Shown: piece by piece, positions 2,417-7,406 of the stretch
Position numbering within the stretch: the stretch's first letter is position 1
Layout of the letters: each line of letters begins with the position of its first letter
From: Candidatus Iainarchaeum sp.
Lineage (GTDB): Archaea; Iainarchaeota; Iainarchaeia; Iainarchaeales; 0-14-0-20-30-16
Length of the DNA stretch: 7,406 bases
Assembly (NCBI GenBank): GCA_903916665.1
Contig: CAIWXP010000049.1
Span: forward strand, 1 to 7,406
Direction of reading: 5' to 3'
Program-made: the position numbers and the translations under genes
Notes under the pieces: model-generated
What the model was told of the DNA's origin: nothing
The model's input: the letters and a program-made list of their open reading frames with translations, nothing else
Database searches by the model: none

Positions 2417-2569
2417 TTATTGAATAACCAGTTTTCTTAATGAATTTGTTTCTTCATTAAATATTCTTACCATATAAACGCCCTTAGGCAGATGCGATAG
2501 GTCTATACGGGTTGTTGTGTTACCGTTAATTTTATCAGCATACATAAGCTGTCCAAGCAATGAGTAAAT
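2417..2569 (-). pseudogene. 3' fragment (last 50 codons plus stop) of a paralogous T9SS cargo gene, truncated at the composition junction
   Basis: Minus-strand translation gives IYSLLGQLMYADKINGNTTTRIDLSHLPKGVYMVRIFNEETNSLRKLVIQ*. An ungapped hand alignment of 2417-2569 to 293-445 shows 130 of 153 identical nt (85%). Similarity stops dead at 2569/2570, and no remaining part of the gene is present. Confidence 0.8.
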
Positions 2570-2922
2570 GTAATGGATTATTAAGTAATAAGTTTGTAGA
2601 TTTTTATGCCATTTATGAAAATAAACTTTATGATGGTAATAAATTATTTAAATTAGATGATTCAAAAGATAGTTTGGTTTTAAGAAATGATCAATTAAAA
2701 GGAGTACAGTTAATAGTAATTAAATCATTAGAAGAAGAATCTAATTCTGGTTGTAATGGTAATTGGCAAAACTATTCTCTAAATAGTATGCAAGATGTTA
2801 TTGATAATTTTAATACTAAAAACATATTATATTTGACTATTCCTGAAGATGGCGAGAATCCAATGTTTGTATATATTTGGGATCACAATGCGTTGATACA
2901 TAACCCTTACACTTGTAGCTAA
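2560..2922 (+). CDS. Small hypothetical protein (120 aa as listed); N-terminus unreliable, possibly the 3' part of a gene cut by the junction
   Basis: This ORF is in the supplied track. Its ATG (2560-2562) lies in the Bacteroidota-like block, while everything from codon 4 onward is in the ~25% GC block, and the next in-frame Met is far downstream. Codon usage (TTA, AAT, GAT, AAA) matches the giant ORF downstream. I recognised no motif. Confidence 0.45.
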   Translation: MSKCNGLLSNKFVDFYAIYENKLYDGNKLFKLDDSKDSLVLRNDQLKGVQLIVIKSLEEESNSGCNGNWQNYSLNSMQDVIDNFNTKNILYLTIPEDGENPMFVYIWDHNALIHNPYTCS

Positions 2923-2996
2923 TTATTAACTCATTTAGTTACCTTTATAAATCTTCATAGCTATATTTTATCACATATTAATTATATTATATAGTT

Positions 2997-3007
2997 AGGA
3001 TAGGGGA
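2997..3007 (+). promoter_or_regulatory. Shine-Dalgarno-like purine tract AGGAtAGGGGA upstream of the giant ORF
   Basis: The G-rich tract ends 5 nt before ATG 3013 and is the only G-rich patch in a 90-nt AT-rich intergenic region. The match to GGAGG/GGTGAT is imperfect. Confidence 0.3.
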
Positions 3008-3012
3008 TAATT

Positions 3013-6000
3013 ATGGCTATTGATCAAGAATTACAAAACTCAGATATAGGGGAGTTACAAAGTGAAATTAAAGCAACAAAGGGATTTCCTTGGAAACCAA
3101 TAATAATAGTTGCATCTATTCTAATTGTTTTAATAGCAGGATTATTAACCTATTTATTTGTGTTACCACATAACGCAGATGTAACATTTTCATTTTTCTT
3201 AAACGATTCCCCTGTTGCAGAAAATCTAAATGTTCAATTGTCCTACGGTAGTACTGTTTTAGATTTAAACAGTGATAAAAATATATTATTAGTAAGCTTA
3301 CCTAAAAATGTTGATGTTAAGCTAAATATTACAACAACAGGTTATCAAATAACAAAAAATTATTATACTGATTCTGATTTATTTAAAGTAAATATAATCA
3401 AACCAGTTAATGTTGAAGAGGTTGCAAAATTACAAGGTCCGACTCAAGAAATTGTTAATTTTAAAATTTATAAATATCCTACAACAACTATATTATACTC
3501 AAGTCCTATATTATTAAATTTAAGTTGTTCTAGTTCTGGAAAATCAGATCAAATAACAGTTAATGGTTCACAAAGTTACACTAAACCAGATAACTGTGGT
3601 TCTTTAGTAGTAACAGGAAATCCAGATGGATTTAAAGCAGTAAACCAAAGATGTGGAGATAGTTGTCAAATAATATTATATGACGATGTTCAAGTAACCC
3701 CTCAACAAGTTGTTGACGTATCTAAAAATAATTTAGTTATAAAAACGATTACTAAATTTGATAATACTGTAATTCCCGATGTAAATGTTGTTTTAAGTCA
3801 AAATAGTTCTTTTTTGTCAGAAGGAATAACAGATGAAAATGGATATTTAGAATTTATTGATTTGCCTTTAGGAGACTATGCTATAAATGCATCGATAAAA
3901 TTGAAAAATAAAATATATTCATTAGCAGATGATGTTAATATTTATTTAGATAGTAATTCAATAACAAAAGTGTTATTATTTAATATTGGAAAAGGTGGCT
4001 CAGGTAATGATTGGGTTTCTGCAAATGATTCTCAAAATAGTACTTTATCATTAACTATAAAAACATTTGATGGTAATGATTGTAATGTTGGCATAGATAT
4101 TTTTGATGTTAATGGAAAAACAATCACTGATCCTCAAGGAGTGTTAATTAACGCAAATGAGAAACAAGAATTTGATTTTGGCTCAGAAAATGGAAATTAT
4201 TTTATAGATGCAATACCTATAGATAATTGTCAATTTAAATATCTTCCAATATATAATTATCCTTTTGATTTTGCAAAAACTAAAGATATAAGTTTAACTT
4301 TACAAGATTTTAATAAATTACAATATTTCATATTGAATGTTCAACCTACAATTTTTGGAGAAAATAAAACAGGAATTAATGTTTCAATTTCAGATGTAAA
4401 TTATATTAAGAATATAATATTGTCTGGATTAGTAACTCAAGATCCAAGCGAATTATATTTTGTTTTAAAGAATGATATAAATTATTATGTAACTGCAAAT
4501 TTAGTTAATGCATTAGGTACAAATGATTACAATGGAAGTACATATTATGAATATATTAAAAATAAAACTATAACTGCAAAAAAAGATGATTCAAATTATT
4601 ATACTGATAGGATAAACTTACCTTTACAATATGTTGGTGCAAACATTGATTTAAACTTAAATGTTTTGTTTGAAAACGAACAAACACACGAATTTAAAGT
4701 TTATGCACAATACAATAATTTAACAGTAGAATTTGACGGCAATAATAGTTTAGCGCAATTAAAAGTGCCAAAAGATACAATGATTAATTTAATAATAGAT
4801 TATAATATAGTAACTTCACAATATCCTCTTGTTTTTGTAGCTCCAGGTACAGATCTTAAAACAATTACAAATAATCCAATTGAAGTAACAAATCAATTTG
4901 TTTATTACTTTAATCCATTATCTTTTAGTAATTCAACAACAATAAATGCAAATATTGATCCAAGTATTAAAGAACCTAAAGCATTTAAGGATGAAGTATA
5001 CAATGATTCTGCTTTAACAAATTCAGTTAAAGATAAGAATGTTTTAGCAAATAAAGATTATTATTTAGGATTTGATGTTGTATTGCAAAATATTACAAAT
5101 TTTAATTGTTTAGACAGAATAAATAAAGGTGCAGCAGATCCGGGAAAGCAAGATAAATCAAAATGTAATGAAAAATTAAGTGCATTTTATGCAAAAGATG
5201 TATCTCCAAATGTATTTGATATTAAAAATATATCAAATGAAACAGTACAATCAACGGATGATAATTATTATTATGTTTTAAATAGTTTAGATAATACTAT
5301 GGGCGAAACTGATATGACAACAAGAATTATGAGATATGTTGTTAAAATAACTCCAAATGAGTTATCTAGCGGTAAAACAGGTATATTCAATTATGGTGCA
5401 TTGTTTAATGAAAATCAGAGTAGTAAAGATGTATCTATAGAACCAAACCTAAGCAAAGATAAAAATATTGAATTTTATGTTGATGGCAAAAAAGCATTAA
5501 CTGACTTTCCGCCCTATGTGTTAAATGCTTTGGATAAAGGAATGGATATTTATTCAATGTCTTCAGAAATGTCAGCTCTTTTAAAATATACATTTACAAA
5601 TTTTGTTGATGTAAATATTAATGGTCCTGAAAAACAAACTGGAGAAATATTTGTTTTGGCCAAAGGAAATTGTTATACAGTTAAAACTGCAAATTGGACT
5701 TCAAAAGTATCTAATTTACAAAATTGGGCAAATGATTTATATGTTGCAACATTTACAAAATTTTTTAGTTTAGATAAAGGAATTGTGGACAAAAATATTT
5801 TATCAGATGGTAAATTAGAATTAAGTATGGATTTGAATTTAAATTTATTAAAAACTATGAATTTACCAGACTCAATAGATGCTAAATTAGATTTGAACTT
5901 ACAAGAAATTGCATGTTCAAAAATAAATGTAGGCACAACAACAGTAAGACCAAATACGGGATTTAGTAATTCTGATATTATAAATGAAGTAATAAAAAAT

Positions 6001-7406
6001 AATAAAGTTAATACGACAGAAATTATAAAAGAAACAAAAGACTTAACAAGACAAATTAGACCTACAACCATTGATATGAGTAAGTTACCAATACCTCCAA
6101 GACCGGTAGAAAATACAGGTTTAACTTCAGATACAATGATAGATTCTAGAACTAATGTTTCTTCAAATACTGTTACAAATTCAATAATTAATGCAAATTG
6201 GAATGTTAGAACAAATATGATTGCAAATACAAATGTTATTAAAATTAATACTAGTTTTGTTAATACTAATTATAAATCTAGTCCTATTCAAAATAATCAT
6301 TTAGATGCTCCTATTGAAAATAATTCTGCAATATACTTTGGTGCTGGCATTAGTGCAAGTACTGGTTATGAAGTAAGTGGTTCTATGTCAAACAGCAAAT
6401 TATCTGTTGCAATTAATCCAAATGCAGATAATATTTCTGCAGGCAATAAAAATACTATAACTGATGCTACTGCAGTGCCGGCAGTTTCACAATATGTTAA
6501 TATAACTGTGCCTGTAACTTTTATAATTCATGATAGTAGTAAACCAACTAAAGATTGTGTTATCATTAAATACAATAAAGAAACAAATGAATTGGGATTA
6601 AGCGTAGATACTGGAAAATGTGGTTTTGATACTAACTATTCGTATATATTGATGAATAACAATATTAAAACTACTGGAAAATTGTCTCACACCATAGACT
6701 TAAACTATGGAGATTATGATTTGAATATTTATTATTTGGTTAAAAACCAACCAAAGTTTTTAGAAAATAGTAAAAGTAGTGTAATGCCAGAAACAGCAGA
6801 CTCTTCTTTTTTATATTCTCCAAGAGTTAGAATTCCTATAAAATATGGTAAAACTATTGATTGTAGTAAGTTATATTGTAGTTATGAACAATTACAAAAC
6901 TATAATAAATTATCCATTAAATCAAATAATCCTCTTTTAATGGATGATAATTTTATTTCGGATTCTAGTGTAAGTAAAGAAAATAAAGAAACTGCATTAG
7001 TAGACAAAGATAATAGATCTTTAATTGCGGCAACAATAGATTTAACAAATAATTTGTTTTATCACATACCGTATAAGAGTGATTCTAGTTACTATGGTTT
7101 ACCTGTAGGATCCTGCGCAACAGAATCAACAATCAATTATATTGGTTCAGATGAAATGTTAAATTGTGGTACTGGTGTTACTGCATTTAAAAATATTATT
7201 ATTAATGATTTATCTTCAAAAAGATCATCAAATCTAAATACTGCTTTAATAGGAATAGTAAAAGATAATACTATAACTTTAGATTATTATTCTGCACCAG
7301 GATTAGCAGTTTATGATTGTAGTGTAAATATTGAAAGTTGTTTCAAAACTTTTGGCAAAGATAATGCCTATCTATATTATAGAAACAATATTTATTTTGC
7401 AAAAGA
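3013..7406 (+). CDS. Giant membrane-anchored surface protein, partial (1,464 codons, 3' end beyond the window); not present in the supplied ORF track
   Basis: I translated frame +1 codon by codon from 3013 to 7406 and found no TAA, TAG or TGA. An in-frame TAG at 3001-3003 fixes ATG 3013 as the first possible start. At ~25% GC a random frame should hit a stop roughly every 11 codons. The product begins MAIDQELQNSDIGELQSEIKATKGFPWKPIIIVASILIVLIAGLLTYLFVLP, followed by a long hydrophilic Asn-rich ectodomain. Confidence 0.85.
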   Translation, partial: MAIDQELQNSDIGELQSEIKATKGFPWKPIIIVASILIVLIAGLLTYLFVLPHNADVTFSFFLNDSPVAENLNVQLSYGSTVLDLNSDKNILLVSLPKNVDVKLNITTTGYQITKNYYTDSDLFKVNIIKPVNVEEVAKLQGPTQEIVNFKIYKYPTTTILYSSPILLNLSCSSSGKSDQITVNGSQSYTKPDNCGSLVVTGNPDGFKAVNQRCGDSCQIILYDDVQVTPQQVVDVSKNNLVIKTITKFDNTVIPDVNVVLSQNSSFLSEGITDENGYLEFIDLPLGDYAINASIKLKNKIYSLADDVNIYLDSNSITKVLLFNIGKGGSGNDWVSANDSQNSTLSLTIKTFDGNDCNVGIDIFDVNGKTITDPQGVLINANEKQEFDFGSENGNYFIDAIPIDNCQFKYLPIYNYPFDFAKTKDISLTLQDFNKLQYFILNVQPTIFGENKTGINVSISDVNYIKNIILSGLVTQDPSELYFVLKNDINYYVTANLVNALGTNDYNGSTYYEYIKNKTITAKKDDSNYYTDRINLPLQYVGANIDLNLNVLFENEQTHEFKVYAQYNNLTVEFDGNNSLAQLKVPKDTMINLIIDYNIVTSQYPLVFVAPGTDLKTITNNPIEVTNQFVYYFNPLSFSNSTTINANIDPSIKEPKAFKDEVYNDSALTNSVKDKNVLANKDYYLGFDVVLQNITNFNCLDRINKGAADPGKQDKSKCNEKLSAFYAKDVSPNVFDIKNISNETVQSTDDNYYYVLNSLDNTMGETDMTTRIMRYVVKITPNELSSGKTGIFNYGALFNENQSSKDVSIEPNLSKDKNIEFYVDGKKALTDFPPYVLNALDKGMDIYSMSSEMSALLKYTFTNFVDVNINGPEKQTGEIFVLAKGNCYTVKTANWTSKVSNLQNWANDLYVATFTKFFSLDKGIVDKNILSDGKLELSMDLNLNLLKTMNLPDSIDAKLDLNLQEIACSKINVGTTTVRPNTGFSNSDIINEVIKNNKVNTTEIIKETKDLTRQIRPTTIDMSKLPIPPRPVENTGLTSDTMIDSRTNVSSNTVTNSIINANWNVRTNMIANTNVIKINTSFVNTNYKSSPIQNNHLDAPIENNSAIYFGAGISASTGYEVSGSMSNSKLSVAINPNADNISAGNKNTITDATAVPAVSQYVNITVPVTFIIHDSSKPTKDCVIIKYNKETNELGLSVDTGKCGFDTNYSYILMNNNIKTTGKLSHTIDLNYGDYDLNIYYLVKNQPKFLENSKSSVMPETADSSFLYSPRVRIPIKYGKTIDCSKLYCSYEQLQNYNKLSIKSNNPLLMDDNFISDSSVSKENKETALVDKDNRSLIAATIDLTNNLFYHIPYKSDSSYYGLPVGSCATESTINYIGSDEMLNCGTGVTAFKNIIINDLSSKRSSNLNTALIGIVKDNTITLDYYSAPGLAVYDCSVNIESCFKTFGKDNAYLYYRNNIYFAK
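3094..3165 (+). other. Single N-terminal transmembrane anchor (aa ~28-51) of the giant protein
   Basis: The ~24-residue hydrophobic run KPIIIVASILIVLIAGLLTYLFVL follows a 27-aa charged segment. No A-x-A cleavage site follows it, so it looks like a signal anchor. It is the only long hydrophobic stretch in the 1,464 aa. Confidence 0.75.
3727..3987 (+). other. Carboxypeptidase-regulatory-like / Cna-B-like beta-sandwich domain in the giant protein
   Basis: NNLVIKTITKFDNTVIPDVNVVLSQNSSFLSEGITDENGYLEFIDLPLGDYAINA...VNIYLDSNSITKVLLFNI contains the hallmark V-x-V-x-L......T-D-x-N-G-x-(F/Y/L)-x-F..L-P-x-G-x-Y of the CarboxypepD_reg / Cna-B fold families. The assignment is from the motif only. Confidence 0.55.
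4039..4308 (+). other. Second, more divergent beta-sandwich-like module in the giant protein
   Basis: STLSLTIKTFDGNDCNVGIDIFDVNGKTITDPQG...FDFGSENGNYFIDAIPIDNC...ISLTLQD repeats the pattern of alternating strands plus ENGNY-F-x-x-x-x-P and is bracketed by a Cys pair. The match is weaker than for the preceding module. Confidence 0.35.

Follow-up and report, generated by a model that had tools for sequence, protein, structure and literature searches.

The window analysed here is a 7,406-nt stretch of DNA (contig CAIWXP010000049.1), 59% of which is covered by a large open reading frame (ORF) that starts at ATG 3013 on the forward strand and is still open at the window edge. The ORF was missing from the supplied ORF track only because its frame runs past the window end, as the initial annotation had presumed. 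The large ORF is a real, nearly complete gene. Based on sequence comparisons, its product belongs to a small, undescribed family of archaeal proteins, and it is predicted to be tethered to the membrane by an N-terminal helix and to expose a long ectodomain with beta-sandwich modules. The features of the gene are listed below, where TM stands for transmembrane, HMM for hidden Markov model, and P0001–P0007 for the relatives described in the next section.

3003–3008 (+): Shine-Dalgarno-like sequence GGGGAT, 4 nt 5′ of ATG 3013, with a putative function
3013–7406 (+): large surface-protein gene, 1,464 codons; the 3′ end lies beyond the window edge, with about 75–110 codons predicted to be missing
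3013–3096 (+): acidic cytoplasmic N-terminus (aa 1–28), ending with K20/K23/K28 (sequence; conserved in P0001–P0005)
3097–3165 (+): single TM helix or signal anchor (aa ~29–51) (hydropathy; present in all full-length relatives)
3166–5172 (+): conserved N-terminal ectodomain (aa 52–720), about six beta-sandwich modules (AlphaFold2, Foldseek, alignment, and an HMM over aa 55–715)
3748–3903 (+): prealbumin/CarboxypepD_reg-like sandwich (aa 246–297) (sub-threshold Pfam matches; PDB profile search)
5173–6024 (+): variable middle (aa ~721–1004), which aligns chiefly with P0001 and in which the N-part sandwiches recur as weak internal repeats
6025–6462 (+): low-complexity linker rich in S/T/N/P (aa ~1005–1150) (composition; poorly aligned in the family)
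6781–7404 (+): first two-thirds of a Cys-containing C-terminal module (aa 1257–1464) (BLASTP, alignment, and HMM)

When frame +1 was recomputed from ATG 3013 to position 7406, it contained 1,464 sense codons and no stop, in agreement with the first reading of the letters; the five remaining frames contain 73–214 stops each over the same span. The base composition (a measured GC content of 26.0%, initially given as about 25%) predicts a stop probability of 0.094 per codon, that is, one stop per 10.7 codons, close to the initial estimate of one per 11, and the probability of a chance open frame is 2.5e-63. The 3-nt periodicity, which had been suggested as a check of the coding status, is strong: the period-3 Fourier power is 60–95 times the mean for C, G, and T, and the GC contents at codon positions 1, 2, and 3 are 35, 32, and 11%, respectively. 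An in-frame stop (TAG 3001–3003) is located 5′ of the large ORF, and ATG 3013 is the sole start candidate, which is backed by the aligned N-termini of the homologs. Further support for this start comes from a G[GT]GA[TG] sequence, which is found 4–5 nt 5′ of the ATG both in the window and in four of the relatives (contigs L001, L002, L004, and L005). We rejected an alternative genetic code; TGA, TAG, and TAA are each absent from the frame, and Trp is encoded by TGG. Within the large gene, the reverse strand carries an ORF of 132 aa (5673–6071), which is most likely a by-product of codon bias and not a gene; of the five other frames, the antisense one in register with the gene is interrupted by the smallest number of stops (73). 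An Rfam scan of the window found no RNA families.

The Kyte-Doolittle profile of the whole ORF has a single segment at or above 1.6 (aa 23–55, with a peak of 2.88). Because K20, K23, and K28 lie on the N-side of this segment, it is designated as a signal anchor in the N-in orientation, and the product is by prediction a type II membrane-anchored protein. The 28-aa n-region followed by a hydrophobic helix of ~23 aa corresponds to a signal anchor and not to a cleaved signal peptide. This result bears out the topology read initially from the letters, namely, a short cytoplasmic N-terminus, one TM anchor, and a long ectodomain. A class III pilin signal was considered for the same region and rejected: where the window reads KATKG-FPWKP, the relatives read KKP-FPKK or KNPKPFKK, without a conserved Gly and with basic residues after the site.

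The AlphaFold2 model of aa 52–720, calculated with an 8-sequence alignment, is an all-beta chain of about six sandwich modules with a predicted local distance difference test score (pLDDT) of 73.4. In a Foldseek search of this model against the PDB, the matches listed were exclusively multi-domain stalks of immunoglobulin (Ig), CnaB, and prealbumin modules with about 10% identity, and the top matches were TIE of B. anthracis (6fwv, 6e-11), the Cna B repeats (1d2p), PitA, BcpA, SdrD, and GhpA. The initial annotation had recognized generic beta-sandwich modules in the ORF, and the N-terminal 670 aa can now be modelled as a chain of such modules. Four cysteines within the conserved ~600-aa part of this ectodomain (Cys172, Cys195, Cys214, and Cys218) are invariant in the family alignment. 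The ORF contains 18 Cys in total, all of which are located in the ectodomain as near pairs. For aa 246–297, Pfam gave CarboxypepD_reg (1.3e-3), SdrD_B, SpaA, and NOMO_3rd, all below the gathering threshold, and a profile search of the PDB gave NOMO and transthyretin-like proteins at E~3e-3. Secondary matches of the N-part HMM were observed at aa 800–945 within the variable middle, and the fraction of S, T, N, P, Q, and G in the linker is 0.45–0.52, compared with about 0.35–0.4 elsewhere in the ORF. Scans of the large ORF with Pfam, PHROGs, NCBIfam, and PADLOC gave no match above threshold, and neither the single-sequence nor the profile searches of the PDB gave a match past threshold. Thus, the initial impression that the product has no recognizable named family holds.

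Relatives and their gene neighbourhood

The family was identified by an exhaustive phmmer search of 1.84 billion representative proteins with aa 56–1255 of the ORF as the query. The search gave 13 matches, seven of which are clear relatives (P0001–P0007); the remainder match a single prealbumin-like domain only. The best relative is P0001 (E=2e-100, 33% identity over 1,041 aa), followed by P0002–P0005 at 1e-41 to 1e-46 and by P0006 and P0007 at about 1e-22 to 1e-24. All seven are singleton, metagenome-only clusters. The full-length members have in common the acidic N-terminus, the single hydrophobic helix, and the ~600-aa N-terminal ectodomain with the four invariant cysteines. In a word-indexed search of 5.8 billion proteins, performed with the ORF and with the family profile, no homologs were present among the 8,000 candidates obtained each time. 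Such negatives are unreliable for low-GC proteins because the exhaustive search found clear homologs in the same collection; the empty result was probably caused by a flood of candidates sharing N/K/I-rich words. Searches for related loci with the ORF in IMG/VR, the GTDB species representatives, and the JGI metagenome contigs found none at the sensitivity used, and tblastn against phage and plasmid collections found no relatives of the large ORF. The two complete proteins of the window had no exact match in the collection, which accordingly does not contain the source contig. Samples in which relatives occur include SRR22216451, JGI 3300005077, and JGI 3300013137.

A second conserved region of the family is a C-terminal module of ~300 aa (hereafter C-module), which is common to P0003–P0006 and to other large proteins (giants) encoded at the same loci. 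Its motifs in the family are DC..YC, LxDDN[YF], HLFYYxPY, GSC, CxxxxxC, and a final SLQD(V/I)I..YN...Y.YYWN(L/I), and the large ORF carries IDC..YC, LMDDNF, LFYHIPY, GSC, and C.....C, with the position of the final motif falling past the window edge. BLASTP with this part of the ORF gave E=4e-7 to 2e-6 against the C-terminal regions of P0003, P0004, and P0006. The ORF spans positions 2–218 of the 293-position C-module profile (~75 left) and stops at 'AYLYYRNNIYFAK'; P0004 has ~85 residues after the equivalent point. Because the profile and the relatives leave about 75–110 codons beyond the window edge, the full-length protein is predicted to have ~1,540–1,575 aa (about 1,550). To judge from P0003, P0005, and P0006, a low-complexity tail of up to ~130 aa may follow the end of the module. 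The initial annotation had allowed for a much longer gene; with only ~75 profile positions of the C-module missing, the protein would be large but not giant.

In the relatives, one to three tandem giant paralogs lie directly upstream of five small genes for multi-pass membrane proteins, on the same strand and with gaps of 5–132 nt, in all eight of the lineages examined. One or two more giant genes come before the family member at L002/L003, L004, L005, and L007; they are paralogs with the same N-part, TM helix, and C-module, and the set of small genes starts 37–83 nt after the giant on the same strand. By analogy, genes for five membrane proteins of about 110–146, 115–120, 80, 110, and 113 aa would be expected within ~130 nt after the large ORF of the window. 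No Pfam family was found for the five small membrane proteins. One of them is 65–90% identical among loci whose giants are ~28% identical, and a search with this protein gave 44 clusters. In the contexts sampled from this search (L013, the JGI 3300072015 locus, L017, and L015, with small-protein identities of 67, 55, 39, and 37%, respectively), giants of 2,000–2,750 aa are located directly upstream of the small genes. The family profiles no longer match these distant giants convincingly; the giants retain the single N-terminal TM helix, a cytoplasmic motif of the P0006 type, and a terminal SLQDLF..VC..FWWNP motif.

The coordinates of these and the neighbouring features on the contigs of the relatives are as follows.

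L001: 163–917 (−), HEPN (HepT-like)/MNT nucleotidyltransferase toxin-antitoxin pair
L002: 3154–9909, giant of the second N-terminal subtype; 14673–16439, five small membrane-protein genes; 20406–20876, VKOR-family gene
L004: 1719–5177, giant of the second subtype; 9502–11102, five small membrane-protein genes
L005: 5139–6894, five small membrane-protein genes; 9982–10386, VKOR-family gene
L006: 614–3958, giant of the second subtype
L007: 3162–4923, five small membrane-protein genes; 8177–8629, VKOR-family gene
L013: 3596–4846 (+), AAA_14/DUF4143 ATPase gene; 4939–6531, five small membrane-protein genes; 9649–10059, VKOR-family gene
L015: 1854–9470, giant of the second subtype; 9582–11489, five small membrane-protein genes
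L017: 2127–9569, giant of the second subtype; 9702–11315, five small membrane-protein genes; 14095–17781 (+), family B DNA polymerase gene

A few genes downstream of the cluster, the relatives have a conserved gene of the VKOR family, which acts in the formation of extracytoplasmic disulfides. The paired cysteines of the ectodomain and the nearby VKOR gene fit the presence of extracellular disulfides, which we infer for the large protein. The second N-terminal subtype of giants has a longer cytoplasmic segment with the motif YY..L(D/E)K....P....ID.IDK(V/I)(M/I)PS before the TM helix. This motif is common to lineages whose ectodomains are otherwise unrecognizable, and its conservation suggests a cytoplasmic or membrane interaction.

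Several further observations concern single loci or single small proteins. The first and second small proteins appear to be distant paralogs (the HMM of the second matches the first at 1.6e-5), and the fourth ends in a Gly-rich tail. In one metagenome-assembled genome, the AAA_14/DUF4143 ATPase gene of L013 lies between the giant and the small-gene module, and in another, genes for an FtsX/MacB_PCD permease lie inside the module (JGI 3300072015 locus, 10360–11499). The toxin-antitoxin pair of L001 adjoins the gene for P0001 on its upstream side. In L017, the family B DNA polymerase encoded close to the cluster contains an intein (Intein_splicing) between the DNA_pol_B halves, and its L015 ortholog is free of it.

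The contigs of the relatives have GC contents of 22–27% and resemble the right part of the window in this respect. Their neighbouring genes are archaeal: TYW1 scored 360 bits against an equivalog cutoff of 318, and a ribosomal protein L3 scored 273 bits on the archaeal model compared with 51 on the bacterial model. A type II methionine aminopeptidase, a family B polymerase, NMD3, and the L3/L4 operon are also located beside the clusters, which thus occupy a stable chromosomal site amid archaeal housekeeping genes. A tRNA search of these loci found none. By this synteny, the large gene is assigned to an uncultured low-GC archaeon. A DPANN affiliation is plausible in view of the low GC content, the occurrence in metagenomes only, and the abundance of genes for large surface proteins. 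Among the sources named in the initial annotation, the archaeal one stands with the housekeeping genes listed above, and bacteria of the candidate phyla radiation, predatory bacteria, and mobile elements do not, given the archaeal chromosomal synteny and the lack of viral, plasmid, and PHROG matches.

The junction at position 2570

The part of the window to the left of the large gene has a different origin. It contains the following features, in which T9SS denotes the type IX secretion system.

293–2236 (−): gene for a 647-aa protein with a T9SS Por_Secre_tail and Ig_7/PKD-like repeats (Pfam and NCBIfam; Bacteroidota)
2417–2570 (−): fragment of a Bacteroidota gene that encodes a truncated C-terminal sorting domain of the T9SS type (aligned to the C-terminal domain of the 647-aa gene product and to the 1,198-aa protein of contig L011)
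2570/2571: breakpoint, with Bacteroidota-type DNA of 39% GC on the left and archaeal-type DNA of 26% GC on the right (colinearity with L011; shift in GC content and in GC content at third codon positions, GC3)
2571–2922 (+): C-terminal stump (~116 aa and a stop) of a tandem paralog 5′ of the large gene, corresponding to the last third of the C-module (BLASTP, HMM, and alignment)

The GC content drops from ~42% to ~26% near positions 2300–2500. Positions 369–2570 of the window are colinear with a native JGI metagenome contig, L011, with 90.7% nucleotide identity, and the match ends exactly at 2570. Past the end of the match, L011 continues with the rest of an intact 1,198-aa T9SS protein at ~40% GC. 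The 647-aa gene and the fragment at 2417–2570 are tandem T9SS cargo genes, and the DNA sequences of their sorting domains share ~85% identity; between the two genes is a terminator-like hairpin (2395–2367, reverse strand).

On the other side of the breakpoint, the archaeal-type DNA begins in the middle of a gene. The stump carries SMQDVIDNFN...YIWDH and matches positions 201–291 of the 293-position C-module HMM, and BLASTP against the C-termini of the giants gave 2e-7 for P0006, 2e-5 for P0004, and 2e-3 for L004_1152. It opens at 'DFYAIYENKLYDG', the point equivalent to that at which the large ORF leaves the window, and therefore gives the remainder of the module in a different gene. Accordingly, we rejected the listed 120-aa ORF (2560–2922, forward strand) as an independent small gene; it is the tail of a paralog from ~2571, and its ATG at 2560 is fortuitous because it is located in Bacteroidota-derived sequence. 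The initial annotation had overlooked both the composite nature of the window and the identity of this small ORF.

The genes on both sides of 2570/2571 are cut in mid-domain at this one point, GC3 jumps across it from 0.30 to 0.11–0.16 without amelioration, and no integrase, transposase, inverted repeat, or target duplication was seen in the 4.8 kb of archaeal-type DNA available. The window is very probably an assembly chimera that joins Bacteroidota DNA (1–2570) to an archaeal gene cluster (2571–7406). Alternatively, the junction may be real and represent an inter-domain insertion of a fragment of the archaeal cluster into a Bacteroidota T9SS gene, which would make the ORF bacterial now. The given sequence does contain the join, where no low-complexity stretch or long repeat is visible, and the breakpoint falls inside a Bacteroidota gene, as expected of an insertion. 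However, the inserted DNA would begin mid-domain in a truncated gene and would be devoid of the mobility signatures searched for above, a GC3 of 11% would stand wholly unameliorated beside 30%, a Shine-Dalgarno-led protein with a type II anchor would land in the periplasm of a diderm, and the native contig L011 is free of the insertion. We consider this alternative highly improbable. The GC jump beside the long ORF is a probable two-organism misassembly, and the window is an unsafe basis for conclusions on gene transfer or mobile elements.

Proposed function and comparison with known systems

We regard as fairly probable an overall explanation in which the window is chimeric and contains a near-complete archaeal surface-protein gene, whose product would be an anchored sandwich stalk that makes contact through its C-module and works with a platform of small proteins. 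The large protein would be inserted through Sec in the N-in/C-out orientation and tethered by its N-terminal helix. The sandwich modules would form a disulfide-stiffened stalk that holds the C-module away from the membrane, and the C-module may mediate contact, either with the envelope of its own cell or with a different cell. The set of five small membrane proteins may serve as a conserved membrane platform or as a partner of the giant array, and the fast divergence of the exposed parts may reflect surface exposure and interactions with a host or virus. The putative function of the large ORF is thus in adhesion or in envelope structure.

Several points weigh against this explanation. The last 209 aa of the ORF were outside the phmmer query. 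The Foldseek TM-scores are 0.1–0.2, owing to the multi-domain geometry, and the matches are generic fold matches that do not establish adhesion. The structure model of the C-module has a pLDDT of 46.8 and is unusable, which leaves the putative head without a structural assignment, and P0001, the closest relative, and P0002 are devoid of the C-module, so that the module is not obligatory. The ORF has 30 N-glycosylation sequons compared with 26.9±4.5 expected, that is, no enrichment. The downstream side of the gene itself is out of view, and the synteny is transferred from relatives at 25–33% identity. Finally, the chimera is argued from sequence logic and not from reads.

More tentatively, the ORF could encode a subunit of a lineage-wide archaeal cell-surface apparatus composed of tandem N-anchored giants and the five small membrane proteins, possibly an organelle for host attachment or intercellular contact in a low-GC, possibly DPANN, lineage. 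If so, the apparatus would be without a counterpart in Pfam, NCBIfam, or the PDB. The leading candidates for the recognition and holding of other cells by tiny symbiotic archaea are large surface proteins with a single anchor, and almost none of them has been assigned to a family or machine. The family with its conserved ends and the five small membrane proteins, found together in all eight lineages, provide a defined target set for structural biology and cryo-electron tomography.

The tandem giants might instead be envelope-structural components of an S-layer-like or sheath-like nature, fixed by the N-terminal helix and by a C-module that docks on the small proteins, and not adhesins. As would be expected of core envelope genes, the cluster occupies a fixed chromosomal site in every lineage examined. 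The proteins are rich in beta-sandwiches, as are known archaeal S-layer proteins, which also diverge quickly, and the termini are the most conserved parts even in the distant giants, as interfaces for docking or assembly might be. The signal peptide of known archaeal S-layer proteins is usually cleaved, and attachment is by a C-terminal anchor or by a stalk protein of its own; the N-terminal signal anchor of the large ORF is unlike this arrangement. It would also be unusual for a lattice protein to have two or three divergent paralogs at a locus and members without the C-module, and no archaeal S-layer structure is present among the 50 Foldseek matches listed. Together with the absence of an S-layer domain in Pfam or NCBIfam, the unenriched sequons, and the absence of a C-terminal TM helix in the relatives, the anchor led us to reject membership in the archaeal S-layer proteins, and we regard an S-layer-like role in the wider sense as unlikely.

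An even less likely possibility is that the giants and the small membrane proteins form a conduit, that is, a channel or injection device directed towards a host cell. The tight coupling of the giant genes to those of the five conserved, small integral membrane proteins and the FtsX/MacB_PCD permease inside the module of one lineage are in line with this idea, and a precedent was proposed for the nanohaloarchaeal giant proteins (PMC10266531). However, neither the ORF nor the conserved module contains an ATPase domain (VirB4/TraG or other), the AAA_14 gene of L013 occurs in one lineage only, and the protein would have ~1,550 aa, not 9,000 aa, and a single TM helix. A receptor-binding or fibre protein encoded by a virus or mobile element might be suggested by the large, beta-rich, fast-evolving protein with its distal conserved module and by a weak Pfam match of a paralog to phage_tail_N (E=0.018). 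This reading is hardly credible, since there are no PHROG matches and no relatives in IMG/VR or the phage and plasmid collections, synteny with housekeeping genes such as those of the ribosomal L3/L4 operon is kept from lineage to lineage, and an N-terminal membrane anchor is atypical of virion fibres.

With respect to known systems, the product of the large ORF resembles a stalked surface adhesin, yet it falls outside each of the classes compared: the MSCRAMM/CnaB adhesins, the SPEARE-type proteins, the pilins, the S-layer proteins, and the T9SS cargo. Its kind, a large single-anchor Ig-rich archaeal surface protein, is already known. The family itself, its C-module, and its fixed pairing with five genes appear to be new; they have no entry in Pfam, NCBIfam, PHROGs, PADLOC, or the PDB, and no literature search was aimed at the gene arrangement. 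No sequence similarity of the large ORF to any annotated protein was detectable in the word-indexed and exhaustive protein searches. We rejected T9SS cargo because the Por_Secre_tail is confined to the 647-aa protein of the left flank; neither the ORF nor the complete relatives have it, and the contigs of the relatives are archaeal.

The best structural matches to the N-terminal 670 aa are the MSCRAMM/CnaB adhesins and the sortase pilins, which likewise project a distal region on a serial Ig/CnaB/prealbumin stalk. In contrast to the large ORF, these proteins are bacterial, lose their signal peptide by cleavage, and are anchored by sortase at a C-terminal LPXTG, which corresponds to the opposite polarity of attachment, and the identity is ~10%. 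Neither LPXTG nor a C-terminal TM helix is found in the complete C-termini of the relatives, and the domain scores of the ORF, 17.0 bits for SdrD_B (cutoff of 29.7) and 14.3 for SpaA (cutoff of 23.1), are below those of members. The strong full-length homology to a characterized adhesin family that the initial annotation had considered was not found. The grappling hook GhpA of Aureispira (9flp, 9fly, and others) is also a long extracellular filament of serial beta-sandwiches, used for cell-cell capture, but it is bacterial, exceeds 5,000 aa, and is associated with the T9SS; with 7–9% identity and a TM-score of ~0.07, the resemblance is generic.

Among archaeal proteins, the 'hypothetical external' proteins of Nanoarchaeota are defined by a single N-terminal TM helix and exhibit high non-synonymous diversity (PMC6142677). 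The proteins described here are alike in that they have one TM helix near the N-terminus, are unannotated, and diverge fast (giants at ~28% identity, with neighbours at 65–90%). They differ in that the 'hypothetical external' proteins are a heterogeneous category and not a family, and the organisms here have GC contents of 22–27%. The nanohaloarchaeal giants, SVXNc_0300/BNXNv_0298 and the 'SPEARE' of Ca. Nanohaloarchaeum antarcticus, have 6,000–9,400 aa (PMC10266531, PMC6642349), contain a VirB4/TraG-like ATPase domain, and are followed by a gene for a VirB4-family ATPase (PMC10266531). In clear contrast to the >5,000 aa and the ATPase that characterize SPEARE, the large ORF would encode ~1,550 aa and contains no ATPase or other enzymatic domain by Pfam and NCBIfam, and the downstream genes in its relatives encode the five small membrane proteins instead of a VirB4-family ATPase. 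The two groups nevertheless have in common an archaeal origin, an N-terminal membrane tether, a very large ectodomain rich in Ig-like modules, lineage-specific and fast evolution, and a proposed role in host contact.

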